Shown here piece by piece: positions 14,275 to 34,250 of a DNA stretch of 64,000 nt. Origin of the DNA: Vicinamibacterales bacterium. GTDB lineage: Bacteria > Acidobacteriota > Vicinamibacteria > Vicinamibacterales > UBA8438. The DNA is taken from positions 1,461,627 to 1,525,626 of the forward strand of contig CBDBBK010000001.1 of the NCBI GenBank assembly GCA_965202655.1. The letters are read 5' to 3'. The stretch's first letter is position 1; each line of letters starts with the position of its first letter. A program made the translations under genes and the position numbers. Under the pieces are notes generated by a model. The model ran no database searches, was not told the DNA's origin, and saw only the letters and a list, made by a program, of their open reading frames with translations.

Positions 14275-15417
14275 TCAGGGACCCGCTTCGATCAGCTCCA
14301 GCGCCAGGCCGTCGAGATCCTCGATCAGCACGGCGCGCGTATCGCCGAACGCGTAGGGACCCTCGAGGATCGGCACCCCCCGGGACTCCAGGTGAGCAAG
14401 CACCGCATCGAGGTCCGGGTAGGCGATCCCCACACGGTCGACGACCTGGCCGCGGGACCGCGTCAACGGCACGTCCAGGTCCGGACCGCAGCGGCCGTCG
14501 CGACACTGACGCGTATACCAGGCCCAACCCGCGTTCTCGAGGCGGACGCTCGCTATCGGACGCCGGAGCTGCCCCATCGGCAGGAACGACGCGTAGCTGA
14601 CATCACCGATCGGGACGTCGCACGGGTCGTACAGCGGGCGCGGGGTCAGTTCGCCCGTGTCGGGGTTGCGTTGCGGCGGCAGGGTCATGCCCAGCGTCTC
14701 GACGTACCAGTTCGCGGCGCAGAGCGGCTGTTCGTGCCAGAAATGCGTATGGCCATAGAAGAGATCCTCGGTCTCCGCATTACCGTTGAACTCGACGAGA
14801 ATCCCGTCCGGATCGACCAGATAGCCGAAGTCCTGCCCGCTCCCCCGGTCGCGCGTCGGGTTCAGGCCCTCGCGTGCGCGCCGCTCCTCCATTTCCGCCA
14901 CCGTCAGCAGTTGATCCCCGAACGGCGCGAGGCCCGAGTGCGGGACGCCGACCGTATCGTCCGGCCCGGTGAAGACCGGCAGGAAACCGAAGCGTTCCCC
15001 GTCCGGGTCGAGCGCCGTCAACCGCTCGTACAGCGCCAGACCGTCCGTGCTCGGCCCGGTCGTCCAGAACGGACTCTGCGGAATCGATTGCCGCCGTTCC
15101 GGATCGAACGCCCCGGGCGCCTGCTCGTCCACCTGCGTATACAGCAGATAGATCCCGTCGGCCGCGAACGCCGGCATTCCCGCGAAAGTCGTCCGCTCGC
15201 CCGCCGGCCAGAACGTCGACCACCAGTCGAGGGCGCGTTCCGGATCGACCGAGTTGACATGGATATGGTGAAAGCTCGGCTGCGGTAGCGTCGCGGGAAC
15301 TGGCGAGCGCGTCTCCGACGGCGTCTGACCCGCCGCATCGCCCCCAGTACCCGTCGGCGCGCCGGCGCATCCCGCGGCGACGATGACGCCAAGCAGGGCG
15401 GCGAACTTCGCCTTCAC
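14275..15417 (-). CDS. VOC (glyoxalase/bleomycin-resistance/dioxygenase) family lipoprotein
   Basis: Lipobox LLGVIVAAGC. FHHIHVNSVDPERALDWW, GYLVDPDGILVEF and VDRVGIAYPDLDAVLAHLESRGVPILEGP...VLIEDLDGLALELIE. The GTG start overlaps the upstream stop (GTGA at 15414-15417). Confidence 0.65.
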   Translation of the reverse strand: MKAKFAALLGVIVAAGCAGAPTGTGGDAAGQTPSETRSPVPATLPQPSFHHIHVNSVDPERALDWWSTFWPAGERTTFAGMPAFAADGIYLLYTQVDEQAPGAFDPERRQSIPQSPFWTTGPSTDGLALYERLTALDPDGERFGFLPVFTGPDDTVGVPHSGLAPFGDQLLTVAEMEERRAREGLNPTRDRGSGQDFGYLVDPDGILVEFNGNAETEDLFYGHTHFWHEQPLCAANWYVETLGMTLPPQRNPDTGELTPRPLYDPCDVPIGDVSYASFLPMGQLRRPIASVRLENAGWAWYTRQCRDGRCGPDLDVPLTRSRGQVVDRVGIAYPDLDAVLAHLESRGVPILEGPYAFGDTRAVLIEDLDGLALELIEAGP

Positions 15418-16514
15418 TCGCCGATGATGGCGACGCCCCAGGGTCGCTCGCCGGCCGGGATGGTGCCGACGACCTGATTGGTCTCCGTGTCGACGACGCT
15501 GACGTCGTTGGACGGGCCGTTCGCGGTGTAGAGATAGCGGCCGTCGGGGGTGATGCCGATGCCCCAGGGTCGCTCGCCCACTTCGACGGTCGACAAGGGC
15601 TGCCAGGTGGCGGCGTCGATGGTGACGACGGTGCGCCCGCGGCCGGTGGTGACGTAGACGCGGGTGCCGTCGGGAGAGACGACGACACCCATCGGGCGGA
15701 CCAGATCACCCAGATCGGAAAGGTCGATGGTGTGGAGCACCTCGTGTGCCGCCGTGTCCACCACATGGACGGTGCCGCTGTTCTCGGCCGTTACATAGGC
15801 CCGGTTGCTGTCCGGGGAGAACGCGCTGGCCCGCGGGCGGGCGCCCACCTCGAACTGCGCGACCGCTTCGTTCGTCGCCGTGTCGATGGCGGTCACCTGA
15901 TTGTCCTCTTCCGAGGTGACATAGACGACGCTGCCGTCGGGGCTGATGCGGACGCCCTCGGGCTCGCCGCCGACCGGAATCTCGGCCAGGATCTCGCCGG
16001 TCGCGATGTCGACGACGCTCGCTATCCCGGCGTCCTCGTTGGCCACATACAGCCGGGCGCCGTCATTGCTCACCGCCATCTGCTCCGGGTCGGTGCCGGC
16101 GCGGACCATGTTCACCACCTCGCCGGCCACGATGTCGACAACCCCGATGCCGTCGGCGGATCGGTCGGGGGGTGGGAGCGTGCTCTCGTCGGTGCCGGGC
16201 GGCGATGGGGGCGAGCCGCTCAGCGCGACAAACAGTTGGGTGCGGTCGGGCGACACCTTGATGCCGCGGGGCCGCTTGCCCAGTGGGATGGTGTTCACCA
16301 CCTCGTTCGTCCCACCGTTGATGACGGTCAGGTCACCGGCGTACTCGTTCGTGACATAGACGACGTACGGCGGTGCGGATGGCGCCTCGTCCATCGCCGC
16401 CGCGTCCTCGGCCGGGGCCTCGCCGCCGCCGCCGCACGCAATCGCGAACACCGCTACGAGCGCCGCCGCAGCGCCCATCCAACCGCGTGGCTCAACTGTA
16501 GTTGTCATCTTCAT
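15414..16514 (-). CDS. YVTN-family beta-propeller repeat lipoprotein
   Basis: Lipobox VFAIAC. Repeats include YVTNEYAGDLTVINGGTNEVVNTIPLGKRPRGIKVSPDRTQLFVA and LYVANEDAGIASVVDIATGEILAEIPVGGEPEGVRISPDGSVVYVT. Confidence 0.8.
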   Translation of the reverse strand: MKMTTTVEPRGWMGAAAALVAVFAIACGGGGEAPAEDAAAMDEAPSAPPYVVYVTNEYAGDLTVINGGTNEVVNTIPLGKRPRGIKVSPDRTQLFVALSGSPPSPPGTDESTLPPPDRSADGIGVVDIVAGEVVNMVRAGTDPEQMAVSNDGARLYVANEDAGIASVVDIATGEILAEIPVGGEPEGVRISPDGSVVYVTSEEDNQVTAIDTATNEAVAQFEVGARPRASAFSPDSNRAYVTAENSGTVHVVDTAAHEVLHTIDLSDLGDLVRPMGVVVSPDGTRVYVTTGRGRTVVTIDAATWQPLSTVEVGERPWGIGITPDGRYLYTANGPSNDVSVVDTETNQVVGTIPAGERPWGVAIIGE

Positions 16515-16587: not shown

Positions 16588-16628
16588 CAGAAAGACGAAG
16601 GGGACAGGCGCTAGTGGCGCCTGCCCCC
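16588..16628 (-). terminator. rho-independent terminator candidate downstream of the 746-aa gene
   Basis: Hairpin at 16600-16627 (GGGG-A-CAGGCGC / loop TAGTG / GCGCCTG-CCCC; 11 bp with a 1-nt bulge). On the minus strand it is followed by CTTCGTCTTTCTGG. Confidence 0.45.
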
Positions 16629-16659
16629 TCCGAACCGTTACGAACGAACCCGGCGCGCC

Positions 16660-18900
16660 CTATCTGGCGAGCGGGTCGGGCCGAAGCTGGAAGTGCACCA
16701 TCTTGCTCTTGGTGCCCTTGCCGCCTTCGGTGTGCCAGATGTAGTTGGAGCCGTAGTTGGCCCAGAGGCCGCGGCCCTTCCACCCGGCGTTCGGGTCGTC
16801 GATCCGGCCGTCGAGACCGCGGGAGTAGAACGCCATCGGGTACGGCACCCGCAGGATGGTCCACTCGCCGGTCTCCGGGTCGAGCGCCAACAGCGAATCG
16901 GACGACGATCCGTTCGCAATCGGCACGTTCTCCCCGAGGCCCAGGGTGTTGTACTGGTCGACCCAACTGTAGTAGTGGAAGTCGGCGCTACCCGGCGTGT
17001 CGACCCCTTCCATCTGCGGGCCCGGCACGGTGTAGAGCGTCCAACCCTCGGCGCACTGCTGCCCGGTCGCATCCGGACCGTTCATCGTCGTGCACTTCGT
17101 GCGGTCGAAGCTGGCCATCTGGCTGCTGCCGGAAAGCGCCGTCCAGATGACGCCGTTCCGGTCGACGTCGATCCCGCGCGGCGCGAAGCCGGTCTGGCTC
17201 GCGTCGACGTTCGGGTTCTCGACGGAGGGCGGCTCGTAGACCTCCGCGATGCAGGTCTCCGGCGGATTGTCGCCCCGGTCGAGGCGGACCAGCCGGCCCG
17301 GGAACGGCCCGGTGCGGGTGATCCAGATCGAATCGTCCGACGGGTGCGCGATGATGCCGTAACCGAAGCCGACGATCCGCGTGTCGAGGCTCGGGTCGAT
17401 CTCGACCTCGCCCCGGCGGTTCGGCTCGTTCCACGGCTTGGTGATCTTGCCGTCGCCGTTGGTGTCGATGACGGTCGGGCACCAGCCCTGCGAGAACTGC
17501 TCGTCACCCGTCTCGTCGTACAGCTTCGTGTCGATCCAGCCGATGGAGTTGCTGTCGCCGCTGAACCAGAGGGTGTCGTTCTCATCCTCGCCGAACTGCA
17601 GGTGGTGAGTCCCGAAGCAGGTGTCCACGAGGACGAAGTTCTCCGTCTCCGGGTCGTAGTACGACGCCTGCCGGCCGCTCTGGTTCAGCGGGAAGTACTC
17701 GGCGTACTTGTTGTCCGACCCTTCCCGGCACCAGTCGGGATTCGGGCGGGCGCGAACGGTCGACGTCATCCAGACGCGGCCGTCCTGGTCCATCATCGGG
17801 TTGTGCGGGTCGGACGAGTTCTCGTTGCCGTCCGGGCCGCCCCGGCCCCAGAGGAGCTGATCGCCCCAGTAGTACGACGGCTGGAGCTGCTCCTGCGGGA
17901 AGCGCGACGGGACCGAGTTCGGATCCGCCGGCCGCACCGGAATCGGCAGCTCGACGGCGGAGTTCTCGACCGGGTCGACGATCGTCAGGCTGCCGTGGCC
18001 CGCCGATACGCCGTAGACCGGCCCGCCGCCGTTGACGGTCGGGTTCCGCTTGTCGGTCGTGATCTCGTCGTGGATGAAGGAGCTGTCCGTCCCCCAGTCC
18101 CAGAGCGTGACCACGAGGTTCTGCTCCATGCCGTCCGGACGCGGCGGCCGCGGCGGCGTCTCGCCGGCGGCGATCCGGTCCGTCCAGTCCGCGAACATCT
18201 CGAGCGCGCGACCGCGGCCCATGCGGCTCATCGCCGCGCTCATCGCGGTGCCGCGCTGTCCCGTCTGCACCCGGTGATCCCAGGCGGCGACGGTCGAGTC
18301 GAAGTCGTCGACGTGCTGCACGACGCGGGTCGCCGTGTTGCCGAGCTGGTGACAGAGCTGGCAGCCCTGCTTCATCACGTCGAGCCAGTGCTGCTGCGTC
18401 CGCATGTTCTCGGCGATACCGTTCCCGTCCGGCCCGGTGCCCGGGAACTCGCTCGCCGGCGGCGGCTTGATGAGCGAGTACCAGTAGTTACCCGGGTAGT
18501 ACTGCGCCGCCGCCTGCTCGTTCGGCGCGATGACCGCTTCGAGCGTGACGTCGTCGCTGGAGGGTGACAGCTTCACCTTCTCCGAGTCGACCAGCCCGTA
18601 GCCGCGGACCCAGACGTCGTAGGTGGCGTCCGGCAACTGCGGCAGGACGAAGCGGCCGTCATCGGCGGTGACGACGATCTTGGCGAACCTCGTCTCCAGT
18701 TCTTCCGTCTCGGCGATGACCCAGACGCCTCCTTCCGGGCCGTTGCTGCTCTCGACGACACCGCTGATGTAGCCCTCGGCCATCTGCGCGGTCTCCTCGG
18801 CGGACGGCATCGCCCCGAAAAGGGCAATGGCGCCAACGAGGGCCACGCTGACGGCTCCGAGCCGCAGCGAGCGCCATGGCGTGTATGTGCGCGCGTTCAT
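16660..18900 (-). CDS. exported protein: carboxypeptidase-regulatory-like domain + single c-type heme site + large beta-propeller-like region
   Basis: Start moved to ATG 18900 (AGGAGG 6 nt upstream; MNARTYTPWRSLRLGAVSVALVGAIALFGA). YISGVVESSNGPEGGVWVIAE...DGRFVLPQLPDATYDVWVRGYG. CQLCHQLGN. Repeated segments such as GFAPRGIDVDRNGVIWTALSGS. Confidence 0.65.
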   Translation of the reverse strand: MNARTYTPWRSLRLGAVSVALVGAIALFGAMPSAEETAQMAEGYISGVVESSNGPEGGVWVIAETEELETRFAKIVVTADDGRFVLPQLPDATYDVWVRGYGLVDSEKVKLSPSSDDVTLEAVIAPNEQAAAQYYPGNYWYSLIKPPPASEFPGTGPDGNGIAENMRTQQHWLDVMKQGCQLCHQLGNTATRVVQHVDDFDSTVAAWDHRVQTGQRGTAMSAAMSRMGRGRALEMFADWTDRIAAGETPPRPPRPDGMEQNLVVTLWDWGTDSSFIHDEITTDKRNPTVNGGGPVYGVSAGHGSLTIVDPVENSAVELPIPVRPADPNSVPSRFPQEQLQPSYYWGDQLLWGRGGPDGNENSSDPHNPMMDQDGRVWMTSTVRARPNPDWCREGSDNKYAEYFPLNQSGRQASYYDPETENFVLVDTCFGTHHLQFGEDENDTLWFSGDSNSIGWIDTKLYDETGDEQFSQGWCPTVIDTNGDGKITKPWNEPNRRGEVEIDPSLDTRIVGFGYGIIAHPSDDSIWITRTGPFPGRLVRLDRGDNPPETCIAEVYEPPSVENPNVDASQTGFAPRGIDVDRNGVIWTALSGSSQMASFDRTKCTTMNGPDATGQQCAEGWTLYTVPGPQMEGVDTPGSADFHYYSWVDQYNTLGLGENVPIANGSSSDSLLALDPETGEWTILRVPYPMAFYSRGLDGRIDDPNAGWKGRGLWANYGSNYIWHTEGGKGTKSKMVHFQLRPDPLAR

Positions 18901-19062
18901 GTGTCTCCTCCTGAGTCCCCGTCCGTCCCGTAGCGTGTCGTTCGGTCTCTCGTAGCGTCTTCGTAAAAGCGTATTCGGCAAGGCGCGATTATGGATCGGT
19001 TTCGGTCGATTGTCCCGTCCTGTTTATTCCTCCGTGATCGCCCCGGTGATCTTCCCGGCCGC

Positions 19063-20541
19063 CTACTGCTCCTGCTGCTCCGCCAGCGCCAGCCGTTCAG
19101 CCGGGGAAAGATCCTCCGGCCGCCGGGTTCCGGCGGCGGGGTCGGCGCCCAGGTCGAGCAGCAGCTCCACCAGCGCCGGATGCCGGTTGAACGTGTTGGG
19201 ATAGAAAACACCCTGGGCAACAGAGAGGGCCGACCAGCCCTTCTCGTTCACGGCGTCGATGTTCGCCCCTTTCTCCACCAGGAAGCGGACGATGTTGTCC
19301 GCGCCGCGGTGGATCGCGCCGTGAAGCGCCGCGTCGCCGTTCACGTCGACGGCGTTCACGTCGTTCCCCAGCTCCCAGGCCAGCTCGACGGCCGCAAGGG
19401 CTTCCTCGTTGGTGCCGGGGTTCTCGCCGATCTTCCAGATGCCCACGCCGGCCGCCGCCATCAGCGGCGTCGCACCCTCCTCGGTGGTGATGGACGGGTC
19501 GGCGCCGAGGTCGACCAGCAACTGCATCATCTCGATGTCGGCCACCTTCGCCGCCTGCAGGAACGCCGTCGAGCCAATCCGGTTCAGCACGTTGCGGTTG
19601 CCGTCGCGCGGCTCCTGCGTCTGGCGCGCGTCCAGATCGGCTCCCGCCGCGGCGAGCGCGCGCACCATGTCAAAGGCGTCGAGATCGCCCAGCGGCACCG
19701 GAAACGGAGGATTCCGGCCCAGGTTCGGACGGCGGGTCCAGACCACCTGATGGAGGGCGGTCCAGCCGTTCCCGGCCGCGTTCGGATCGGCGCCCTCGTC
19801 GAGCAGCGCCTCGGCGAAGTCGTACTGCGCGTTGTAGACGGCGAGCACGAGGGCGCTCATGCCCCGCTCGGGCAGAACGTCGTCGACGTCTGCGCCGGCG
19901 CGCACGAGCGGGGCAAGCACATCCACATGGCCTTCGCGCGCCGCGAAGAGCACCGGTGTGAAGCCCCGTGCGGAGCGGGCAGTCGGGTCCGCGCCCGCGT
20001 CGAGCAGCCGTTCGACCGACGCGACCTGGTTCTGCGCCGCCGCCCACATCAACGCGGTCTGGCCGCGCCACTCCTCGACCGCATCGACCCCGGCGCCATG
20101 CGCCAGCAGGGCGTCGATGGCCTCGCCGTTCCCGGTCCGCGCCGCGGTCATCAGCGGCGTCTCCCCTTCCGGGTTGGCGCGGTTCGGGTCGGCCCCCGCT
20201 TCGAGCAGGCGGGTGATCATCGGGGTGCTCCCGTTGAGCGAGGCGAGCGCGAGCGGCGTGACGCCGTAGCGGTTCGTCGCGTCGACCGCCGAACCGGCAT
20301 CGAGCAGCAGTTGTGCGATGGCGAGATGGTCGTGGTGAGCCGCCCAGTGAAGCGCGGTCGTTCCGTCCGCCTCCGCCGCGCCGGCCACAACGCCGTCCGC
20401 CAGCAGACTCCGCACCGCCTCCGCGTCACCCGCCTTGACCGCGTCGACGAGCGGCGCATCGACCGCGCGCGCCGCAACGGCGGCGGGCGCCGAAGCCAGC
20501 GCGAGAGCGAGAACGACGAGGGCGGCGGCCGCGTTGCGCAT
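19063..20541 (-). CDS. exported ankyrin-repeat protein (triad copy A)
   Basis: Signal peptide MRNAAAALVVLALALASAPAAVA. More than 10 ANK-like repeats (DGTTALHWAAHHDHLAIAQLLLDAGSAVDATNRYGVTPLALA...). The start shares one base with the DUF1552 stop. Confidence 0.85.
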   Translation of the reverse strand: MRNAAAALVVLALALASAPAAVAARAVDAPLVDAVKAGDAEAVRSLLADGVVAGAAEADGTTALHWAAHHDHLAIAQLLLDAGSAVDATNRYGVTPLALASLNGSTPMITRLLEAGADPNRANPEGETPLMTAARTGNGEAIDALLAHGAGVDAVEEWRGQTALMWAAAQNQVASVERLLDAGADPTARSARGFTPVLFAAREGHVDVLAPLVRAGADVDDVLPERGMSALVLAVYNAQYDFAEALLDEGADPNAAGNGWTALHQVVWTRRPNLGRNPPFPVPLGDLDAFDMVRALAAAGADLDARQTQEPRDGNRNVLNRIGSTAFLQAAKVADIEMMQLLVDLGADPSITTEEGATPLMAAAGVGIWKIGENPGTNEEALAAVELAWELGNDVNAVDVNGDAALHGAIHRGADNIVRFLVEKGANIDAVNEKGWSALSVAQGVFYPNTFNRHPALVELLLDLGADPAAGTRRPEDLSPAERLALAEQQEQ

Positions 20542-21896
20542 CAGACGCTCGCGAGCGTTTCCATCGGCAGGCGGCCAGTGCTGTCGCCCAGGTCGTCCAC
20601 GGGGACTCCCGCCTTGTCGAGCATGCTGACGAGCAGGTTGGTCATCGGGGTCTCGCCCTCGTACTTCAGGTGGCGGCCGCCCTTGAGGGTGCCGGCGCCG
20701 CCTCCCGCGAGGATCAGCGGCAGGTCCAGGTGCGAGTGCTGGTCGCCGTCGCTGATGCCGCCGCCGTAGAGGATCATCGACTGATCGAGCAGTGTGCCGT
20801 CACCGTCCGGCGTCGCCGCCAGCTTCTCGAGGAAGCCGGCGAGCAGGCCCACCTGGTAGGTGTTGATCATGGCGTATTTCTCGAGCCGCTCGGCGTCCAT
20901 CTGGTGATGCGACATCGCGTGATGCGGATCGGGCACGCCGATCTCCGGGAAGCTCTGGGCGGTCTGCTCCCGGCCGATCAGGAAGGTGAAGACCCGCGTG
21001 ATGTCGGCCTGGAAGGCCAGTGCCTGCAGGTCGAACATCAGCCTCGCGTGTTCGTCGAACGACTCCGGAATGCCGACCGGCCGCTCGAGGACTTCCGGCA
21101 GGGCGGCGTCCGACTGCGCTTCGGCGCGCGAGATGCGGCGTTCGATTTCCCGCACCGCCTCCAGGTACTGGGTGACGCGGGACCGATCCGCGGCGCCGAG
21201 GCTGCGGTCGAGCCGCACCATGTCCTCCCGCACCGCGTCGAGGATGCTCCGGTCGTCCTGAAGCCGGGCGACGCGCTGCTCCTCCGTGCCTCCCTCTCCG
21301 AACAGCCGTTCGAAGACGACGCGCGGATTGTGCTCCATCGGGAGCGGCGTCGTGGGCGTCCGCCACGAGAACGTATTGGTATAGACGCAGGAATAGCCGT
21401 TGTCGCAGTTCCCCACGACGTAGCTGTTCTCGAGAGCCAGCTCGAGCGACGGCAGCGGCGTGTCCTGGCCCAGCGTGGCGGCGGCGATCTGGTCCGCCGT
21501 CGTGCCCGCGCGGACGTCCGCGCCCTCGGTCCGCTTCGGGTGGACGCCGTTCAGCCAGACCGCGCTCGCCCGCGAGTGCTCGCCGTTCCCGTCACCCCAC
21601 GCCTCCGCCTGCCGGTGATCCAGACCCGTCGGGATGACGACCTGATCGCGGACGTTGGCGAGCGGCTGGAGGCTGCGCGACAACTCGAGCGCGCCGCCGT
21701 CGCCCGGCGGCGTCCACTCCGCCATGTTGGCGCCGTTCGGGATGTAGATGAAGCCGAGGCGCGGCGATCGCTTCGCGGCCGTGCGCGCCAGCGCGGTGCC
21801 GGCCGGCACCATCGCGTCGAGCAGCGGCAGCGCCAGCGTCGCGCCTACCCCGCGCAGGAAGGTCCGGCGGGGCAAGGACATCTTCTTGATGATCAT
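20541..21896 (-). CDS. DUF1552 domain protein with twin-arginine signal (triad copy A)
   Basis: MIIKKMSLPRRTFLRGVGATLALPLLDAM. GDGNGEHSRASAVWLNGVHP. ITRVFTFLIGRE. ATGA overlap with the upstream gene. Confidence 0.8.
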   Translation of the reverse strand: MIIKKMSLPRRTFLRGVGATLALPLLDAMVPAGTALARTAAKRSPRLGFIYIPNGANMAEWTPPGDGGALELSRSLQPLANVRDQVVIPTGLDHRQAEAWGDGNGEHSRASAVWLNGVHPKRTEGADVRAGTTADQIAAATLGQDTPLPSLELALENSYVVGNCDNGYSCVYTNTFSWRTPTTPLPMEHNPRVVFERLFGEGGTEEQRVARLQDDRSILDAVREDMVRLDRSLGAADRSRVTQYLEAVREIERRISRAEAQSDAALPEVLERPVGIPESFDEHARLMFDLQALAFQADITRVFTFLIGREQTAQSFPEIGVPDPHHAMSHHQMDAERLEKYAMINTYQVGLLAGFLEKLAATPDGDGTLLDQSMILYGGGISDGDQHSHLDLPLILAGGGAGTLKGGRHLKYEGETPMTNLLVSMLDKAGVPVDDLGDSTGRLPMETLASV

Positions 21897-24298
21897 GACG
21901 GCGTTCTCCTCATCTGGAACGGCGCGCTCCGAACGATCCCCTTGATGAGCGTCGACAGCCGGTAGTCGTCAGCCGCAGCTTCCCGGACAATCGCCCGCAC
22001 GGTGGGGGCGTCATAGTACTCCACTCCACGCCCGAGGGCGTAGGTCAGCAGCTTCTCGGTAACGGTCGTGACGAAGCGGTCGGGGTGGCGCAGCAGCGCC
22101 TCCTTCAACTCGCCCGGCCCGTCGAACGCGGAGCCGTCGGGCAGTTCTCCGGAGGCGTCGATCCTCTGCTTCGTTTCGCTCCGGTCGCGCCAGCGCCCGA
22201 CGGCGTCGAAGTTCTCCAGCGACAGGCCGACCGGATCCATCAGGCGATGACAGCTTGCGCAGACCGGGTTGGCGCGGTGCTGGGCCATCGCCTCGCGCAT
22301 CGAGAGGGCCTCTCCCCCCTCCGCCGTCTCCAGTTCCGGCACGTTCGGCGGCGGCGGCGGTGGTGGGGTTCCGAGGATGTTCTCGAGCACCCACTTGCCG
22401 CGGTTCACCGGGGAAGTGCGGTTGGCGTACGAGGTGACGGTCAGGATGCTGCCGTGACCGAGCAGGCCGCCGCGCGCCGGCTCGTCGAGCACGACGCGGC
22501 GGAAGTGGCTGCCCCGGACTCCCGGTATGCCGTAGTGCCGGGCGAGCCGCTCGTTGACGAACGTGTAGTCGGCCGCGAGCAGGTCGAGGATGCTCCGGTT
22601 CTCGCGCAGCACGCTGTCGAAGAGCAGCTCGGTCTCACGGCGGAACGCCTGGCGGAGCCTCTCGCCGAAATCGGGGAAAACGTCCTCGTCCGGCTGCACG
22701 GCGGCGGCGTTCCGCAGCGTCAGCCACTGACCCGCGAAGTTGCTCGTGAGGGCGTCCGAACGCGGATCGGCGAGCATCCGCGCCACCTGCGCGTCGAATG
22801 TCGCTTCATTACCCAGCTCTCTCCGCTCGGCGAGGTCGAGAAGCTCGTCGTCCGGGATGCTGCTCCAGAGGAAGAACGACAGGCGCGACGCCAGCTCGAG
22901 GTCGCTGATGCGGTAGTTGGCGTCCGCCGCCGCGCCCTCCGGGTCCCGCTCGACGCGGAAGAGGAACTCCGGGCTGACCAGCAGCCGGCGGATCGCCATC
23001 TCGATGCCGGTGTCGAAGCTGCCGCCGTCGCGGCCGCGCTCGTAGAAGTCGACCAGACGGTCCACGTCCTCACCGTCGACCGGCCGGCGGAACGCGCGCC
23101 GCGCGAGGGTCGAGAGGATGTCCCGCGCGCACGCGACCTCCTCGTCGGCCGTCGCTCCGGTGGTGGGCCGGCACGTCAGGATCCGCGCGCGGCTCGGCGT
23201 CTCGTCGACCGGGCGCGCACCGCTCGATTCGTACGGCCCGGCGATCGTCACGCTCTCCACGTAGGGCTGATAGCGCGAATCCCCGCCGGATCCCTCGCCG
23301 GTGAACGGCCGGAGGTAGAGCTTGCGGATCCCTTCCGGCTCGGCCGATGTCTTGCGAAGGAACGCGACTCCCACTTCGTGCGGTCCCGCGGTGACCGGGA
23401 CGCGAACCTCCAGCGTTTCGATCTCCGGCACGTAGAGGCCGCGCGGATCGTTCTCGTCGGGCGACTTGCCGACGGTCAGCAACTCGATCCGTTCACCGTC
23501 GATCGTGATTTCGAGGTCGTGCGGCTCGATGCGCAACGGCCCGTCCGGCAGCACCTCGATGACGTACTCGGCGTCTTCCGGGAAGTTGTACTCGACCACC
23601 AGGCCGCCCCGCGTGCCGAACGGGAGGCCTTCCATCCGGACGTCCTGCCCGAGGTCGGACGCGACGCGGAAGGTCTCGGCGGTAGGTGACGGCACGGGCG
23701 ACGCCACCGCGAGGCGGCTCACCTTGCGCGCCGCCGAGAGGTACCGATCCATGAGCGTCGGCGAGACGCCAAGCACGCCGGCGATGTTGTCGAAGCCGTA
23801 GCTCGTGTCGTCCGCCGGCAGCAGATCGTCGACGTTCACGTCGAGGGCCAGCAGGTCGCGGACGGCGTTGCGGTACTCGGTGCGGCTGAGCCGATGGAAC
23901 GTCTCGGTCCGCCCCGGGTTCGGATCGGCGGCGGCCGCAGCGTCGAGTTCGCCTTCCAGCCAGGCGCGAAACGCGTTGTAGGTGGCGTCGTCCGGACGCG
24001 GCCGGGGACGGGGCGGCATGGCGCCCGCACGCAGTTTCCGGACCACCTTTTCCCACTGCGCGGGATGCGCCGCCACGTCCGCCGCGTCGACCGTCTCGAG
24101 CGAGAAGCCACCGGTCTCCAGGCGGTCGTTGTGGCAGGTGACGCAGTAACGGTTGAGCAGCGCCTGCTGATCGAACTCGACCGGGGCGCCGGACGCGCCC
24201 GAGGCCTGGGGGGACGGCGTGGCCGGCGCAGCCACCGTCAGGACGACGGCGACACCAACTGCCGCCGCCACGAATGCGAGTCGCGCGCTTCTCGGCAT
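21893..24298 (-). CDS. DUF1587/DUF1592/DUF1595/DUF1588/DUF1585 multidomain protein with N-terminal c-type heme site (triad copy A)
   Basis: Start set at ATG 24298 (MPRSARLAFVAAAVGVAVVLTVAA). YCVTCHNDRL, FHRLSRTEYRNAVRDLLALDV, LASRLSFFLWSSIPDDELL, NFAGQWL and VCASCHRLMDPVGLSLENFDAVGRWR. Confidence 0.8.
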   Translation of the reverse strand: MPRSARLAFVAAAVGVAVVLTVAAPATPSPQASGASGAPVEFDQQALLNRYCVTCHNDRLETGGFSLETVDAADVAAHPAQWEKVVRKLRAGAMPPRPRPRPDDATYNAFRAWLEGELDAAAAADPNPGRTETFHRLSRTEYRNAVRDLLALDVNVDDLLPADDTSYGFDNIAGVLGVSPTLMDRYLSAARKVSRLAVASPVPSPTAETFRVASDLGQDVRMEGLPFGTRGGLVVEYNFPEDAEYVIEVLPDGPLRIEPHDLEITIDGERIELLTVGKSPDENDPRGLYVPEIETLEVRVPVTAGPHEVGVAFLRKTSAEPEGIRKLYLRPFTGEGSGGDSRYQPYVESVTIAGPYESSGARPVDETPSRARILTCRPTTGATADEEVACARDILSTLARRAFRRPVDGEDVDRLVDFYERGRDGGSFDTGIEMAIRRLLVSPEFLFRVERDPEGAAADANYRISDLELASRLSFFLWSSIPDDELLDLAERRELGNEATFDAQVARMLADPRSDALTSNFAGQWLTLRNAAAVQPDEDVFPDFGERLRQAFRRETELLFDSVLRENRSILDLLAADYTFVNERLARHYGIPGVRGSHFRRVVLDEPARGGLLGHGSILTVTSYANRTSPVNRGKWVLENILGTPPPPPPPNVPELETAEGGEALSMREAMAQHRANPVCASCHRLMDPVGLSLENFDAVGRWRDRSETKQRIDASGELPDGSAFDGPGELKEALLRHPDRFVTTVTEKLLTYALGRGVEYYDAPTVRAIVREAAADDYRLSTLIKGIVRSAPFQMRRTPS

Positions 24299-24441
24299 CT
24301 GAGGCCCCGGACGAGGGGCGCGCGGCGACGCGCAAACCTCGCCCACCCAGGAAAATCGACCCATTCTGAATCGAAGCACGGAGGTGTGTCAATCGGTGTC
24401 CGAGTGCGGTAGCATGGCCCGGAATCGAGGTTTCAGGAGGG

Positions 24442-27252: not shown

Positions 27253-28539
<1,287 letters not shown>

Positions 28540-28543
<4 letters not shown>

Positions 28544-28942: not shown

Positions 28943-30457
28943 TCAGCGGCCGTCGCGCGACTCGACCACGTCCGGATCGCCGAGCGTCCAGTCGATCGTG
29001 TTGTCGGCGCCGACGGCAGTGGTGGGATCGGCGCCCAGCTCGAGGAGAAGCGCCTCCATCTCGGGCCAGCGCTTGCCGGTGTTGGAATAGAACACGCCCT
29101 TCGCGATGCGGAACGGCGTCCAGCCTTTTTCGTTGGTCGCCTCGATGTCCGCCCCCTGGTCCAGCAGGAACCGGACGAGCGGCTCGGACCCGCGGATGAT
29201 GGCGCCGTGCAGCGCCGTGTCGCCGTTGTCGTCCACGGTGGCGATGTCACCGCCCAGCTCCAGGGCGTACTCGACCGCCTCCAGCGCCTCCTCGTTGGTG
29301 CCGGGGCTCTCGCCGACGGCCCAGATGCCGACGCCGGCCGCGACCATCAGCGGCGTGGTGCCGTCCTCGTTCGGAATCAGCGGGTCGGCGCCCAGTTCGA
29401 CGAGAAGACGCATCATCTCGACGTCGGCCCCCTTGGCGGCCAGCAGGAACGGCGTGGACCCGATCCGGTTCAGGACGTTGCGGTAGCGGTTGTTCGGCTC
29501 CTTCGTCATCCGGGCGTTCAGGTCGGCGCCCTGCTCGACGAGCTTCCGGACGAACTCCAGATCCGTCATCGTGCCGGTGACGATGGGTGGCGGGTTGTTG
29601 AAACCGAGATTGGGGCGGCGCGTCCACTTGATCTCGTGGAGCGCCGTCCAGCCGTTGTCGTCGGCATTGGGATCGGCGCCCGCATCGAGCAGCACGGCGC
29701 CCAGCTCGTAGTGGCCGTTCTTCGTCGCCAGGACGAGAGCGCTGGTGCCGTCGAGCAAGGTCTCGTCCGGGTTCGCGCCGGCATCGAGCAGCAGCCGCGC
29801 CATCTCGATGTAGCCCGCGCGCACGGCAAACAGCAGCGGACTGAAGCCGAGGCTTCCGGCGGAACGCTCGTGAACGTCGGCGCCAGCGTCAATCAGCGTC
29901 TTCGCCGCTTCCAGGCGGTTCTCCGTGGACGCCCACATCAGTGCGGTCTGGCCCCGCCATGACTCGGCCCGGTTCGGGTCGGCGCCCGCGTCTAGGAGCA
30001 GTTGCACGGCGTCAGCCCGGCCGCTGCGGGCAACCGTCATCAGCAGGGTCTCGCCCTCCGGGGTCGCCCAGTCCGGATCGGCCCCCGCGTCGAGCAGCAG
30101 CGTGAGGAAAGCGACGCTGGCGTTTTCGGCGGCCAGCGCGATCGGCGTCACGTCGAACCCCGTCGCGGTGTCGACCTGCGCGCCCGCCCCGATCAGCGTG
30201 CGTCCGATCTCGACCGCGTCGTCGAACGCGGCCCAGTGGAGCGCGGTCGAGCCATCGGCGTCGGCCGCGCTGACGTCGACACCGTCTGCAATCAGCGCGC
30301 GCACCTGCTCCAGATTGCCCGCCCGCACCGCCTCGACGAGGGGCAGATCGGCCGGCGCCGCCACCGCGACTCCAACGCCGGCGGTGAACCCGGCCGCCAT
30401 CCCGATCACGGCGAGCGCCGCGGTTGCCCTGCGCCGCAAGTTCCCGTTTGACCGCAT
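28943..30457 (-). CDS. exported ankyrin-repeat protein (triad copy B)
   Basis: Signal peptide, then ANK repeats. It is collinear with 19063-20541 (e.g. WTALHEIKWTRRPNLGFNNPPP vs WTALHQVVWTRRPNLGRNPPFP; NVLNRIGSTPFLLAAKGADVEMMRLLVELGADP vs NVLNRIGSTAFLQAAKVADIEMMQLLVDLGADP). Confidence 0.85.
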   Translation of the reverse strand: MRSNGNLRRRATAALAVIGMAAGFTAGVGVAVAAPADLPLVEAVRAGNLEQVRALIADGVDVSAADADGSTALHWAAFDDAVEIGRTLIGAGAQVDTATGFDVTPIALAAENASVAFLTLLLDAGADPDWATPEGETLLMTVARSGRADAVQLLLDAGADPNRAESWRGQTALMWASTENRLEAAKTLIDAGADVHERSAGSLGFSPLLFAVRAGYIEMARLLLDAGANPDETLLDGTSALVLATKNGHYELGAVLLDAGADPNADDNGWTALHEIKWTRRPNLGFNNPPPIVTGTMTDLEFVRKLVEQGADLNARMTKEPNNRYRNVLNRIGSTPFLLAAKGADVEMMRLLVELGADPLIPNEDGTTPLMVAAGVGIWAVGESPGTNEEALEAVEYALELGGDIATVDDNGDTALHGAIIRGSEPLVRFLLDQGADIEATNEKGWTPFRIAKGVFYSNTGKRWPEMEALLLELGADPTTAVGADNTIDWTLGDPDVVESRDGR

Positions 30458-30492: not shown

Positions 30493-31845
30493 CTAGACGT
30501 CGGTGAGCGCCGTCAGACGCCCGGTGCTGTCGCCCAACTGCTCCTCCGGCAGGCCCGCCTTGCCCAGCATGCTGATGAGCAGGTTGGTCATCGGCGTGTC
30601 CTTCGGATACTCGAGGTGGCGTCCGCCGCGCATGCCGGCCGCCTTGCCGCCCACCGTCAGGACCGGCAGGTCGTAGTGCAGGTGGTCGTTGCTGTCGCCC
30701 AGCCCGGCGCCGTAGAGAACCATCGAGTTGTCGAGCAGCGAACCCTCGCCATCGGGCGCCGCCTCGAGGCTCCCCAGGAAGTGCGTGAACAACTCGACGT
30801 GGTGCCGGTTGATCGTCGACAGCTTCGCCAGCTTCTCCGGATCGTTGCGGTGGTGCGACAGGCCGTGGTGCGGATCCGGCACGCCGATCTGCGGATAGGT
30901 CCGGCCACCCAGCTCGCGGCCCACCATGAAGGTGAACACGCGCGTGATGTCCGCCTGGTAGGCGAGCGAGATCAGGTCGAACATCAACCTGACGTGTTCC
31001 TCGTACGAGTCGGGAATGCCGGCGGGACGCTCCAGTTCGTCGGGCAGCGCCGTGTCGGCTCCCTGCGCCTCCGACAACTGGATGCGGCGCTCCACGGCGC
31101 GCACGGCGTCGAGATACTGATCCAGGCGGTGGCGATCGTTGTTGCCGAGGCTCCGCTCGAGATGCGTCAGGTCGTCGGTCACCGAATCGAGGATGCTCCG
31201 GTCGGTGCGCAACTCGGCGAGCCGCTCCTCCCGCGTTCCGCCGTCGCCGAAGAGCCGCTCGAAGACGACGCGCGGGTTGTTCTCCATCGGCAGGGGCGTC
31301 GTCGCCGTGCGCCACGCCACCGTGTTCATGTAGACGCACGAGTAGCCGTTCTCGCAGTTGCCCACGAGGAAGTCGAGGTCGATCGCCAGCTCCAGCGACG
31401 GCAGCGGCGTGTCGCGTCCGATCTCGGCCGCCGCCACCTGGTCCGCCGTGATCCCGGCGCGCACGTCGGCCCCTTCCGTCTGCTTCGGATGGACGCCGTT
31501 CAGCCAGACGGAACTCGCCCGGGAATGTTCGCCGTTACCGTCGCCGAGCGGTTCCGCCTGCCCATGGGCGAGCCGACTGTAGACGATCGTCTGATCGTGG
31601 AACGACGCGAGCGGGCTGAGCGACGGCGAGAGCGTCAGCTCGGTCCCGTTGCTCTCCGGCGTCCAGGTCTGCATCACCGCGCCGTTCGGCAGGTAGATGA
31701 AACCGAGTCGCTTGACGGGCGCCGCCGCGGTCTTCGAGAGCGCGGTCAGGGCCGGCGACATCGCGTCGAGCAGCGGCAGCGCAACTGCGGTCCCGACGCC
31801 GCGGAGGAACGTCCGGCGCGGCAGTGCGAGCTTGGTGATGATCAT
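30493..31845 (-). CDS. DUF1552 domain protein with twin-arginine signal (triad copy B)
   Basis: MIITKLALPRRTFLRGVGTAVALPLLDAM. GDGNGEHSRASSVWLNGVHP. ITRVFTFMVGRE. By eye roughly two thirds identical to copy A. Confidence 0.8.
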   Translation of the reverse strand: MIITKLALPRRTFLRGVGTAVALPLLDAMSPALTALSKTAAAPVKRLGFIYLPNGAVMQTWTPESNGTELTLSPSLSPLASFHDQTIVYSRLAHGQAEPLGDGNGEHSRASSVWLNGVHPKQTEGADVRAGITADQVAAAEIGRDTPLPSLELAIDLDFLVGNCENGYSCVYMNTVAWRTATTPLPMENNPRVVFERLFGDGGTREERLAELRTDRSILDSVTDDLTHLERSLGNNDRHRLDQYLDAVRAVERRIQLSEAQGADTALPDELERPAGIPDSYEEHVRLMFDLISLAYQADITRVFTFMVGRELGGRTYPQIGVPDPHHGLSHHRNDPEKLAKLSTINRHHVELFTHFLGSLEAAPDGEGSLLDNSMVLYGAGLGDSNDHLHYDLPVLTVGGKAAGMRGGRHLEYPKDTPMTNLLISMLGKAGLPEEQLGDSTGRLTALTDV

Positions 31846-34250
31846 GATGCGGATCTCCTCATCTGGAAGGGCGTGCTCCGGACGATGCCCAGAATGATCG
31901 ACGAGAACGTCGTGCCGTCACGCGCGGCGTCGCGGGTGATGGCGCGGATGGCGGGTGCGTCGTAGTGCTCGACGCCGCGGCCGAGCGCGTAGGTCATCAG
32001 CTTCTCGGCCAGCGTGGTGACCAGGAGGTCGGGCCGCAGCAGCAGCGCGTCGCGCAGGCCGGCAGCGCCCTCGAACTCGGTGCCGTCGGGTAGCATGCCG
32101 GACGCATCGATCGGCAGGTTCGCCTCGTTGCGGGTCCGGTGCCTGCCGACCGCGTCGAACTCTTCGAGCGCGAAGCCCGGCGGATCCATCAGGCGGTGGC
32201 AGCTTGCGCAGACCGGGCTGGCGCGATGCTGTTCCATCGCTTCGCGCATCGACAGCGCGTGTCCCTCATCGGTCGTCTCCTCGAGGGACGGCACGTCCGG
32301 CGGCGGAAGGGGCGGCGGCGTGCCCAGCAGGTTCTCGAGCACCCACTTGCCGCGCAGCACGGGCGAGGTCCGCGTCGGATAGGCGGTCGCCGCAAGGATG
32401 CTGCCGTGCCCCAGCAGGCCGCGCCGTGTCGCATCGGGCAACGTCACGCGCCGGAAGTGGCTGCCGGACACACCCGGAATGCCGTAGTGGCGGGCAAGCC
32501 GCTCGTTGACGAACGTATAGTCCGCGGTCAGCAACTCCAGGATGTTCCGATCCTCACGAACGATGCTCTCGAAGAAAAGCTCCGTCTCCCGCCGCATCGC
32601 CTGGCGGAGGGCCTCGCCGAACTCCGGGTACCGGTTCTCGTCGGGCACCAGGGCCGGGACATTGCGCAGGTACAGCCACTGCCCCGCGAAGTTCTCGACC
32701 AGCGCGCGCGACCGCCGGTCGCCGAGCATCCGGTGGACCTGGGCCTCCAGCACGCCCGGATCGCTCAGCCGTCCGTCTATCGCCAGTTCGAGAAGTTCGT
32801 CGTCCGGAACGCTGCTCCAGAGGAAGAACGAGAGTCGTGAGGCGAGTTCCAGATCGCTCAGCCGGTAGTTCTCGTCCGGGCCGACGCCCTCCGGATCGCG
32901 GACGACGCGGAACAGGAACTCCGGGCTGACCAGCAGGCGGCGGAGCGCCAGTTCGATACCGCGTTCGAAGTTGCCGTCCGCCGCGCCGTCGTCATAGAAG
33001 CCGAGCAGGACGTCCAGATCGCGATCGCTCACCGGGCGCCGGTAACCGCGCCGCGCCAGCGTCGAGAGAATCTCGCGGGCACAGGCTCGCGCCTCGTCCG
33101 CGCCGGCGCCACCCGCCGGCCGGCAGGTGAAAATGCGCGCACGGCTCGGCGTGTCCACGGCGGGCGGGGCGCCGCTGCCTTCGAACGGCCCGGTGATCAC
33201 GACGCTCTCGAGGTACGGCTGATAACGCGTGTCGCCTCCCGTAGTGTTGGTGTAGGGCCGGAGGTACGGCTGCCGGAGCGTCTCCGGATAGGCCGACGTC
33301 TTCTTCCGGAACGTGACGCGCAGGGTCCGCGGCCCGGCGCGCACCGGCAGGCGAATCACCCAGTCCTCATCGATGCGGCCCTGGGCGAGCCGCCACTCGC
33401 GATACTCGTCGCTCCGCCGATCCTCGGGAGGTGTTTCGCCTCCGACGGTGAAGGTCTCGAGGTGCTCGCCGTCCAGGCTGACGTGCAGCTCGTGCGCTTC
33501 CGGAAACGTCTGGATGTTGTCCGCCGTATCGCGGCTCAGCCGGACGCGGATGGTGTACTCGGCATCGGCCGGAAAGACGAACGGAACGGCCATGCCCCCA
33601 CGCGTGCCGAAGGGAAGGCCGTCGACCCGGTCATCCTGCGAATAGTCGGCCGCGAGCCGGTAGGTCAGCGCGGTCGCGGTCAGGTCCGGGTTGCCCACCG
33701 CGAGGCGGCTGACCTTCTTCGCCGCAGACAGATAGCGTTCAAGCAAGGTCGGCGAGACGCCCAGGACGCCCGCGATATTGTCGAAGCCGTAGCTGCCGTC
33801 GTCGGCCGGAAGCAGCTCGGCGACATCGACGTCGAGCGCGAGCAGGTCCCGGACGACGTTGCGGTATTCGGCGCGGTTCAGCCGATGGAACGTCTCGGTC
33901 CGGCCCGGGTTCGGGTCGAAAGCGGCCGACGCGTCGAGTTCCGATTCCAGCCACCCGATGAAGCTCGCGTAGGTCGCCTCGTCGGGCCGCGGGCGTGGCG
34001 CCGGCGGCATGGCGCCCGCGCGCAGCTTGCGCGCCACCTTCTCCCACAGCGCGGGATCCGCCGCGACGTCGGCCACGTCAGCCGTGTCGAGTTGCAGCTC
34101 GGCAGTCCGAAGCCGCTCGTTGTGGCAGGTGACGCAGTAGCGGTCAAGCAGCGCCCGGTGGTCGAGTTCCTGAGCTTCGGCCGGAACGGCGGCCGCCAGC
34201 GCGAGCGCCGCAACCGAGACTCGCAGAATTCCCCCGGCCAGTCGCATCAT
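31842..34250 (-). CDS. DUF1587/DUF1592/DUF1595/DUF1588/DUF1585 multidomain protein with c-type heme site (triad copy B)
   Basis: True start at the in-frame ATGATG at 34250 (MMRLAGGILRVSVAALALAAAVPAEA). YCVTCHNERL, FHRLNRAEYRNVVRDLLALDV, LASRLSFFLWSSVPDDELL, NFAGQWL and VCASCHRLMDPPGFALEEFDAVGRHR. The first 314 codons of the 1116-aa track ORF are junk overlapping the MFS gene. Confidence 0.8.
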   Translation of the reverse strand: MMRLAGGILRVSVAALALAAAVPAEAQELDHRALLDRYCVTCHNERLRTAELQLDTADVADVAADPALWEKVARKLRAGAMPPAPRPRPDEATYASFIGWLESELDASAAFDPNPGRTETFHRLNRAEYRNVVRDLLALDVDVAELLPADDGSYGFDNIAGVLGVSPTLLERYLSAAKKVSRLAVGNPDLTATALTYRLAADYSQDDRVDGLPFGTRGGMAVPFVFPADAEYTIRVRLSRDTADNIQTFPEAHELHVSLDGEHLETFTVGGETPPEDRRSDEYREWRLAQGRIDEDWVIRLPVRAGPRTLRVTFRKKTSAYPETLRQPYLRPYTNTTGGDTRYQPYLESVVITGPFEGSGAPPAVDTPSRARIFTCRPAGGAGADEARACAREILSTLARRGYRRPVSDRDLDVLLGFYDDGAADGNFERGIELALRRLLVSPEFLFRVVRDPEGVGPDENYRLSDLELASRLSFFLWSSVPDDELLELAIDGRLSDPGVLEAQVHRMLGDRRSRALVENFAGQWLYLRNVPALVPDENRYPEFGEALRQAMRRETELFFESIVREDRNILELLTADYTFVNERLARHYGIPGVSGSHFRRVTLPDATRRGLLGHGSILAATAYPTRTSPVLRGKWVLENLLGTPPPLPPPDVPSLEETTDEGHALSMREAMEQHRASPVCASCHRLMDPPGFALEEFDAVGRHRTRNEANLPIDASGMLPDGTEFEGAAGLRDALLLRPDLLVTTLAEKLMTYALGRGVEHYDAPAIRAITRDAARDGTTFSSIILGIVRSTPFQMRRSAS

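Follow-up and report, generated by a model that had tools for sequence, protein, structure and literature searches.

The DUF1552 (HXXSHH) proteins form a large family without assigned function, comprising 18,949 clusters at 50% identity (E up to 0.001) and usually encoded next to a PSCyt3 cytochrome. PSCyt3 genes usually adjoin a family of unknown genes, and their function is not known (He et al. 2017, PMC5615132). In the 64-kb stretch of Vicinamibacterales DNA analyzed here (the window), this pair occurs beside a gene for an exported ankyrin-repeat protein, raising the question of whether the ankyrin gene is an incidental neighbor or belongs with the pair as a third member.

As originally predicted, the three-gene unit is present twice in the same orientation (copy A, 19063-24298; copy B, 28943-34250), and the ORFs, translations, and Pfam matches of the two copies are collinear on the reverse strand, running in each from the PSCyt3/DUF1592 cytochrome through DUF1552 to the ankyrin protein (Table 1). 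No third copy or further ankyrin gene was found within the window. The start/stop overlaps claimed for copy A are present, with ATGA at 21893-21896 between the cytochrome and DUF1552 and TGATG at 20541 between DUF1552 and ankyrin; in copy B, the cytochrome stop and DUF1552 start overlap in an ATGA (31842-31845), whereas, unlike in copy A, a 35-nt gap separates the DUF1552 stop from the ankyrin start.

Table 1. Coordinates of the triad genes, their motifs, and neighboring features in the window.
Feature	Position	Strand	Remarks
Copy A cytochrome, PSCyt3/PSD2-5 (DUF1587-1595-1592-1588-1585)	21893..24298	(-)	801 aa, counted from the ATG chosen in the original prediction
Copy A DUF1552/HXXSHH protein	20541..21896	(-)	451 aa
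Copy A exported ankyrin-repeat protein	19063..20541	(-)	492 aa
Copy B cytochrome (PSCyt3/PSD2-5)	31842..34250	(-)	802 aa
Copy B DUF1552/HXXSHH protein	30493..31845	(-)	450 aa
Copy B exported ankyrin-repeat protein	28943..30457	(-)	504 aa
Copy A ankyrin signal-peptide-like N-terminus	20470-20541	(-)	
Copy A heme motifs	CVTCH 24131-24145, CASCH 22247-22261	(-)	motif scan
Copy B heme motifs	34122-34136 and 32196-32210	(-)	motif scan
RRTFLRG twin-arginine motif, DUF1552	A 21849-21869; B 31798-31818	(-)	motif scan
HHAMSHH, copy A DUF1552	20904-20924	(-)	motif scan
773-aa protein downstream of copy A ankyrin	16660..18981	(-)	weak CarboxypepD_reg match
YncE-like beta-propeller protein	15414..16514	(-)	366 aa; homologue downstream in 22 loci
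Promoter-like site before copy A cytochrome start	24363..24392	(-)	TTGACA, 18-nt spacer, CAGAAT; consensus match, count not above shuffles
Terminator-like hairpin after 773-aa gene	16596..16632	(-)	16-bp stem; consensus match only

The cytochrome carries the PSD3, PSD5, PSD4, PSCyt3, and PSD2 domains (DUF1587, 1595, 1592, 1588, and 1585) in this order, all above the Pfam gathering score; its N-terminal cytochrome c matches were weak: Cytochrome_CBB3 clears its cut-off in copy A but not in B, and PSCyt1 is marginal in both. Each protein has two CxxCH heme c motifs, CVTCH at the N-terminus and CASCH in the PSCyt3 region, and across 17 aligned sequences all six Cys/His residues (including C680, C683, and H684 of CASCH) are invariant, apart from C55 (the second Cys in CVTCH), which 90% or more of them retain. 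The copy A protein begins with a hydrophobic signal or anchor, and its orthologues are 76–99% identical. The PSCyt3/PSD protein is predicted to be a Sec-exported, possibly membrane-anchored two-heme cytochrome c that includes a small beta-sandwich region; its structure model was poor (pLDDT 47), and sequence searches linked neither it nor DUF1552 significantly to a solved structure.

The DUF1552 proteins match PF07586 over model positions 1–307 in both copies (E 2.2e-98 and 330.1 bits in A, 7.7e-100 and 334.9 bits in B, against a cut-off of 30). Both contain the conserved twin-arginine motif RRTFLRG, the R11 of which is invariant in 118 sequences from several phyla; on this motif-level evidence, the protein would be exported folded via the Tat pathway. 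The invariant residues D135, D237, H326, D371, and H387 would suit a metal site. The top Foldseek PDB matches of the low-confidence DUF1552 model (pLDDT 55) all belong to the alkaline-phosphatase superfamily (E 3.9e-5 to 0.1, TM-scores 0.33–0.39), namely sulfatases, phosphonate monoester hydrolase, LtaS, BcsG, iPGM, and alkaline phosphatase. Further, a diverse DUF1552 profile aligned collinearly over 120 columns with the DUF1501 protein of the window (score 33.0, hhalign probability 15%), and 0 of 60 shuffles reached this score. Together, these models weakly suggest that DUF1552 lies near DUF1501 and the sulfatase/alkaline-phosphatase fold, and the protein may be a metal-dependent enzyme distantly related to both, with a predicted fold and a putative metal site. 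DUF1552 lacks the formylglycine motif: the sole C/S-x-P-x-R match (S7-L-P-R-R) lies within the Tat signal and none in the mature domain, and the Pfam Sulfatase model did not hit it even with E relaxed to 10, so we rejected membership among type I (formylglycine) sulfatases.

The ankyrin proteins of the triads span 490–520 aa, with repeats detected over most of their length (Ank_2, E 1.3e-60 in A and 3.7e-61 in B; 5–8 matched stretches); the expected size of ~500 aa and export signal were confirmed for both copies (492 and 504 aa). A hydrophobic N-terminal segment immediately precedes the first repeat in 97 of 103 ankyrin homologues, and the protein would be exported separately, by Sec. All three proteins thus carry export signals, which makes an extracytoplasmic module, as in the earlier idea of a periplasmic one, plausible.

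Whether the third gene is linked to the pair beyond the source genome was examined in two samples. A search of GTDB species genomes with the ankyrin protein returned 578 relatives (from Vicinamibacterales, Terriglobia, Bryobacteraceae, Gammaproteobacteria (Ca. Rariloculus), and Rhodospirillales), of which the best 80 loci were inspected: in 76, the ankyrin gene is immediately preceded on its own strand by DUF1552 and the cytochrome, and for two of the other four there is no upstream sequence to inspect. In ~35 of these loci, the cytochrome and DUF1552 matches overlap by one base. The second sample, 80 metagenome loci found by DUF1552 alone, was blind to ankyrin and is confined to relatives sharing 46% or more identity with the seed. 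Here, wherever 1.7 kb or more can be seen on each side of a pair (27 pairs, without exception), an ankyrin homologue lies no more than 700 bp away, be it downstream on the same strand (12), downstream convergent (2), upstream divergent (8), or upstream on the same strand (5), and each of the 31 pairs that showed no ankyrin gene runs into the end of its contig on one flank. The triad is also present in a cultured soil isolate, Novosphingobium sp. KACC 22771. The three-gene neighborhood is therefore conserved and survives changes of gene order. We did note one fused DUF1552-ankyrin ORF (L064), probably an assembly frameshift.

More distant DUF1552 genes appear without this neighbor. At 28–36% identity (Planctomyces, Chondrinema, Sphingobium), no ankyrin gene occurs within 7 kb, and at 37–41% none was seen in the visible flanks of three genes, of which only one (L175) has both sides visible. 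The ankyrin gene is thus a near-constant neighbor of one DUF1552/PSCyt3 clade (at least ~45% DUF1552 identity) in soil and marine bacteria, and the "extension" of the pair in the original prediction stands as a real third gene, albeit one that marks this whole clade and is not local. Both window copies share their Pfam architecture, adjacency, and gene overlap with the known DUF1552 and PSCyt3/DUF1592 pairs ("planctomycete-specific" domains), the ankyrin partner being what the window clade adds. The pair itself is already known, with its function uncharacterized, and no paper mentioning ankyrin together with the DUF1552/PSCyt3 families was found in the literature searched.

The two copies have diverged from one another. 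Protein identity between A and B is 65% for the cytochrome (505/776), 65% for DUF1552 (287/444), and 57% for ankyrin (268/472), and DNA near the DUF1552 starts is 73% identical over 300 nt, in line with the earlier by-eye estimates (about two thirds for DUF1552, lower for ankyrin, and three quarters for the DNA). Whole-gene DNA identity is 67–72% and drops to 45–50% in the flanking 140 nt outside the triads; with similarity ending where the triads end, the repeated unit is exactly three genes, far beyond chance. The identical gene order and orientation of copies only ~10 kb apart might also point to recent duplication of the segment or to misassembly, the second copy then having no separate function. 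However, besides the divergence itself, A and B each have their own orthologues (76–92% identity) in other genomes, the same tandem layout recurs in several other loci (L008, L034, L045/L050, L046), and both copies are intact and constrained, with dN/dS of 0.05–0.28 against orthologues across all six genes, all of which are under purifying selection. These observations refute that reading, to which we give next to no credence. From their sequences, the copies are old paralogues within Vicinamibacterales, and the predicted double occurrence holds but is better described as an old A/B paralogy, with three or four triads in other genomes.

The A and B modules probably differ in substrates or partners. 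Downstream of the copy A ankyrin gene lies a 773-aa protein, by sequence probably an outer-membrane protein, whose homologue directly follows the ankyrin gene in 15 loci; elsewhere, ankyrin is followed by related CarboxypepD_reg plus OMP barrel proteins. This outer-membrane-type protein and the beta-propeller accompany A-type triads only, not B-type.

The triad is inherited as one unit. Across 63 triads, distance matrices correlate at r = 0.88 (DUF1552 and ankyrin), 0.91 (ankyrin and cytochrome), and 0.93 (DUF1552 and cytochrome), values not independent of the species phylogeny, against a maximum of 0.22 among 500 permutations. Ankyrin diverges more quickly than the other two proteins (mean distance 0.53 vs. 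0.43 and 0.45). In several loci (L044, L066, L074, L079), two cytochrome/DUF1552 pairs sit next to one ankyrin gene, and therefore a strict 1:1:1 complex is not required.

We propose that the triad may be an extracytoplasmic three-protein module in which ankyrin is a partner dedicated to binding the cytochrome and the enzyme, a reading that we hold to be evenly poised between right and wrong. The ankyrin protein would bind outside the cytoplasm and assemble, stabilize, or position the pair. The proposal builds on the export signals, purifying selection, conserved neighborhood, and unit inheritance seen above, and would further entail physical contact, electron transfer, and some substrate. Precedent comes from AnkB/KatB, Cj1386/KatA, and AnkB/CatB, where an exported ankyrin protein binds a heme enzyme and promotes it (PMC10294975). 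Of the refuting conditions named with the original prediction, those on linkage outside this genome and on selection or pseudogenisation were examined, and neither went against it. Its stronger form, in which ankyrin is the obligate third subunit of an unrecognized class of periplasmic complex formed by a c-type cytochrome and an alkaline-phosphatase-fold metalloenzyme, is tentative and rather less likely. A similar trio make-up is seen in periplasmic Sox thiosulfate oxidation, with the SoxAX cytochrome, the Tat-exported metal hydrolase SoxB, and the non-catalytic binding carrier SoxYZ, an analogy for how three such proteins might work together, with no sequence relationship expected. A parallel logic is found in the DUF1501 and PSCyt1/PSCyt2/PSD1 module, where a multi-domain cytochrome c, sometimes with carbohydrate-binding domains, is encoded beside a Tat-signal, enzyme-like protein (Kamneva et al. 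2012, PMC3542564). The triad differs in its Pfam families and was rejected as a member given the absence of PF07394, PF07583, or PF07587 matches; a DUF1501 and PSCyt2/PSD1-type pair also lies in the window (40623-45800), where it has no ankyrin neighbor.

Ankyrin could instead act only transiently, helping the cytochrome or DUF1552 to mature or handling a cofactor, for example by delivering heme or metal or shielding a folding intermediate after export. AnkB and Cj1386-type ankyrin proteins are small, much smaller than the 490–520 aa seen here. Since heme c has its own machinery for covalent attachment, a heme-trafficking role is less obvious. The analogy is to AnkB-KatB of Pseudomonas aeruginosa, Cj1386-KatA of Campylobacter jejuni, and AnkB-CatB of Xanthomonas, in which an exported ankyrin beside an extracytoplasmic heme enzyme is needed for full activity or heme loading of that enzyme (PMC10294975). 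The likeness considered is one of gene context, and those partners are catalases with non-covalent heme, whereas here they are a c-type cytochrome and DUF1552; with no catalase gene among the window ORFs scanned, we rejected membership in this catalase-associated class. A shared helper would nonetheless fit the loci with one ankyrin gene beside two pairs, as well as the faster evolution of ankyrin, and we rate a maturation factor as unlikely, though the nearest competitor to a stable partner. Ankyrin solenoids are general protein binders, and tight coupling with start/stop overlaps is typical of enzyme/inhibitor pairs too, such that ankyrin might regulate or inhibit DUF1552 as an immunity-like cap until substrate or partner is present. 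This is improbable given that the 160 clustered loci show no toxin or secretion-system context, the cytochrome is linked as tightly as the enzyme, and the divergent and upstream arrangements leave no fixed enzyme-then-inhibitor order. Least credible among the roles considered for ankyrin is that of a "eukaryote-like" host-interaction factor of symbionts (e.g., of sponges) whose adjacency to the pair lacks functional meaning. While the proteins show generic similarity to eukaryotic ankyrins and Legionella Ank effectors, and we suspect that some of the close relatives are host-associated, the family is also represented among peat, soil, open-ocean, and sediment MAGs (by isolate names) and in the soil Novosphingobium, and adjacency persists in every fully visible pair despite rearrangement. 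NCBIfam effector models scored far under their equivalog cut-off (best 111.6 bits vs. 600), and Legionella/Coxiella Dot/Icm effector membership was rejected.

For the family, a third partner kept despite rearranged gene order marks out a tractable sub-clade and predicts a testable protein–protein interaction, with Novosphingobium sp. KACC 22771 as a culturable carrier of the triad. Signal-peptide-bearing ankyrins in environmental and symbiont genomes need not be "eukaryote-like" host effectors. Given the weak link of DUF1552 with DUF1501 and with the sulfatase/alkaline-phosphatase fold, the two "planctomycete-type" cytochrome modules may vary one theme. If ankyrin does prove to be an obligate subunit, a common exported bacterial ankyrin family would have a housekeeping enzymatic role, not one in host interaction, and this would provide a first handle on PSCyt3/DUF1552 function.

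The window has a G+C content of ~68%, and its nearest relatives are metagenome-assembled genomes (MAGs) of Vicinamibacterales, phylum Acidobacteriota. Two triads, sets A and B, lie within it, each comprising genes for a PSCyt3/DUF1592-type cytochrome c, a DUF1552 protein, and an exported ankyrin-repeat protein (AnkA or AnkB); no additional triad copy was found in the 64-kb window, and an Rfam scan of the whole window returned no RNA family. The source annotations read only "ankyrin repeat domain-containing", "DUF1552 domain-containing" and "DUF1592 domain-containing". Pfam bore out the domain assignments of the original prediction: Ank_2 repeats in both ankyrin proteins (E ~1e-60), HXXSHH/DUF1552 over the entire model in both copies (E ~1e-98 to 1e-100), and, in the cytochromes, a weak cytochrome c match followed by PSD3, PSD5, PSD4, PSCyt3 and PSD2. 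Each cytochrome has two CxxCH motifs, both DUF1552 proteins contain RRTFLRG, and each ankyrin protein begins with a signal-peptide-like segment. The translational coupling described for copy A was found, with both the ATGA and TGATG overlaps; in copy B, ATGA joins the cytochrome and DUF1552 genes, and a 35-nt spacer precedes the ankyrin gene.

Genes of the two triads in the window
Gene	Set	Position	Strand	Basis
Cytochrome	A	21893-24298	-	ORF + Pfam
DUF1552	A	20541-21896	-	ORF + Pfam
Ankyrin	A	19063-20541	-	ORF + Pfam
Cytochrome	B	31842-34250	-	ORF + Pfam
DUF1552	B	30493-31845	-	ORF + Pfam
Ankyrin	B	28943-30457	-	ORF + Pfam

Between the copies, protein identity is 65% for DUF1552, close to the two thirds first estimated by eye, a lower 57% for the ankyrin protein, as had also been anticipated, and 65% for the cytochrome. 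DNA identity is 67–73% within the genes and 45–50% just beyond them; the repeat coincides with the triad. Orthologues at 76–92% identity exist elsewhere for A-type and B-type triads (relatives of each copy) alike, the tandem B-then-A layout is common to several genomes, and some genomes hold three or four triads. Triad-to-triad distances correlate from gene to gene at r 0.88–0.93 over 63 triads (best of 500 permutations, 0.22), which fits a triad duplicated and inherited as a unit, in a measure that is not independent of species phylogeny. The proposed check on selection revealed no relaxation in either copy: dN/dS against orthologues is 0.05–0.28 for all six genes, and decay is seen in neither copy. 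Paralogue values (0.33–0.43) were set aside in favor of these because synonymous sites were near saturation and skewed by GC3. A second copy arising as a recent-duplication artefact is contradicted by the data. Additional, more diverged triads occur in some Vicinamibacterales (loci L039, L043 and L046, upstream of the B-type triad, and L077): a "C-type" whose DUF1552 and ankyrin proteins are ~51% and ~41% identical to those of copy B, and another type (68% DUF1552, 54% ankyrin identity), hence up to four triads per genome.

The original prediction rested on this genome, and its proposed check on linkage outside it was clearly positive. Close homologues of the window ankyrin protein number in the thousands, with PF28177 as the Pfam family listed for some matches, and at four homologue loci (66–85% identity) the order cytochrome, DUF1552, ankyrin recurred every time within differing flanks. 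An ankyrin-seeded scan, with each GTDB species represented by a single genome, gave 578 relatives, and the loci of the best 80 were mostly from Vicinamibacterales, with others from Terriglobia, Bryobacteraceae, Gammaproteobacteria (Ca. Rariloculus and others) and Rhodospirillales. Same-strand DUF1552 and cytochrome genes lie directly upstream of the ankyrin gene in 76 of these best 80; the four exceptions comprise two without upstream sequence, one with a 3-kb insertion and one from Terriglobia with two divergent pairs. Because this search began from the ankyrin, a reciprocal scan of metagenomes, blind to it, was seeded with DUF1552 proteins apparently lacking an ankyrin neighbor. All 27 pairs of DUF1552 and cytochrome genes with both flanks visible (at least 1.7 kb each side) had a near full-length ankyrin homologue (34–55% identity) no more than 700 bp away, lying downstream on the same strand (12), downstream convergent (2), upstream divergent (8) or upstream on the same strand (5); in all 31 ankyrin-less pairs, a contig end cuts one side. 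Adjacency that persists through changes of order and orientation is strong evidence for functional coupling. At some loci, a single ankyrin gene sits beside two pairs. In a Vicinamibacterales MAG (locus L064, 6558–9359), one 933-a.a. ORF joins DUF1552 residues 1–390 to an ankyrin domain (482–927); we rejected a true gene fusion, given that the DUF1552 part stops at residue 390, and the ORF is probably an assembly frameshift.

With 18,949 clusters at 50% identity (E up to 0.001), the DUF1552 family is large, and the linkage has limits within it. A cultured Novosphingobium (sp. KACC 22771; chromid NZ_CP117882.1, ~943.4–948.5 kb) has the triad, with a DUF1552 at 46% identity and a 444-a.a. ankyrin protein bearing a signal peptide. 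No ankyrin gene lies within 7 kb of the Planctomyces, Chondrinema and Sphingobium pairs (28–36% identity), or in the visible flanks of three members at 37–41% identity, of which L175 alone is visible on both sides and two also lack the adjacent cytochrome gene. The ankyrin therefore marks a sub-clade, roughly the DUF1552 proteins that share 45% identity or more with that of the window, rather than the whole family. A distant Sphingobium herbicidovorans pair (pMSHV, locus L171, 8405–9516), without ankyrin, is followed by cytochrome c and cytochrome b genes, a layout that hints at a connection to a membrane electron-transfer chain.

Clustering of neighborhoods at 160 loci gave no near-universal fourth gene; recurrent neighbors encode periplasmic beta-propellers, PQQ dehydrogenases, outer-membrane barrels, metallo-beta-lactamase-fold proteins and small cytochromes c. 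Downstream of A-type triads come a 773-a.a. protein, probably of the outer membrane, and a YncE-like beta-propeller, and cyclase and tannase genes often lie divergently upstream; B-type triads have none of these neighbors. Farther downstream of the A-type cluster, the window holds a 1546-a.a. ORF (9573–14213, minus strand) with a thermolysin-type propeptide, M4 peptidase fragments and beta-propeller repeats. Both GCS2 (glutamate-cysteine ligase family 2) and the metallo-beta-lactamase fold are represented at 3636–5800 (minus strand); members of both families also lie downstream of the A-type triad at locus L001, but in the window they are farther from it, with this large peptidase-like gene in between. 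The interval separating the two copies contains genes for a cyclase-family protein and a tannase/feruloyl esterase, along with a small toxin-antitoxin pair. The last, at 27291–28929 (plus strand) between the tannase gene and AnkB, comprises two ORFs recognized by eye from their translations: a Phd/YefM-like antitoxin starting at 27291 and a PIN/VapC-like protein at 28444–28929. They look like a toxin-antitoxin insertion between the triads. The region 48000–54000, containing a flavin amine-oxidase-like gene (50551–51969), has a G+C of 0.60–0.635 against ~0.68 elsewhere and may be acquired DNA.

Searches of solved structures by sequence and profile gave no significant match for DUF1552 and nothing meaningful for the cytochrome. 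AlphaFold2 models of DUF1552 (low confidence; pLDDT 55, pTM 0.60) and the cytochrome (pLDDT 47) were poor because the homologues used were at least 65–76% identical. With the low-confidence DUF1552 model, all top Foldseek matches belonged to the alkaline-phosphatase superfamily (best E 3.9e-5, TM-scores 0.33–0.39), including sulfatases, phosphonate monoester hydrolase, LtaS, BcsG, iPGM and alkaline phosphatase. With low-diversity alignments, hhalign showed kinship with neither DUF1501 nor PSCyt2 except in the N-terminal cytochrome domain; a diverse DUF1552 profile built from fetched loci, the only one to match DUF1501, aligned collinearly and weakly with the window DUF1501 protein over 120 C-terminal columns (score 33.0, probability 15%; topped by 0 of 60 shuffles). 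Across phyla, D135, D237, E252, H326, D371 and H387 are among the invariant residues, and the mature domain lacks the sulfatase formylglycine motif. Together, these observations lead us tentatively to a sulfatase/alkaline-phosphatase-like fold in a protein that is not a sulfatase; the six residues would suit a metal site. The segment following the twin arginines (residues 10–31; window 21806–21869, minus strand; same in copy B) shows more conservation than is usual in a signal peptide and may be an uncleaved anchor or recognition element. L23 and P24 of its ALPLLDAM motif are invariant across phyla, the Asp in closer alignments only, and residues 13–41 form a single helix in the model. For the cytochrome, the sole structural clue is a set of weak matches to CBM6/35/36-like beta-sandwiches (E ~0.01), a hint rather than a finding, which agrees with the carbohydrate-binding modules reported in some PSCyt proteins (PMC5615132; PMC6004670).

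A hydrophobic N-terminal segment directly precedes the first repeat in 97 of 103 ankyrin family members. Sec is the probable export route of the ankyrin protein and Tat that of DUF1552, and any interaction would therefore occur outside the cytoplasm, which rules out a cytoplasmic Tat-signal chaperone. We propose, with about even confidence, that the products of the triad form an extracytoplasmic module of three proteins, with the ankyrin protein binding the cytochrome/DUF1552 pair as its dedicated partner. The strongest alternative casts the ankyrin protein as a transient helper, by analogy with the ankyrin proteins that assist KatB (a protein also named AnkB) and KatA (Cj1386; PMC10294975). 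An inhibitor is possible and unsupported, and a host effector is contradicted by the data.

DUF1552/PSCyt3 is already on record as an uncharacterised pair (PMC5615132), to which the window's sub-clade adds the ankyrin as third partner. A parallel "planctomycete-type" module, described with function unknown (PMC3542564), is represented in the window at 40623–45800 (plus strand) by a 1243-a.a. PSCyt1/PSCyt2/Laminin_G_3/PSD1 protein, a DUF1501 protein directly after it and an EamA transporter; unlike triads A and B, it has no ankyrin gene beside it. In the literature searched, no paper connects ankyrin with the DUF1552/PSCyt3 families, in keeping with the view of the module as undescribed. The triad is not a new kind of system; it gives a firm, testable entry point into a large uncharacterised family.
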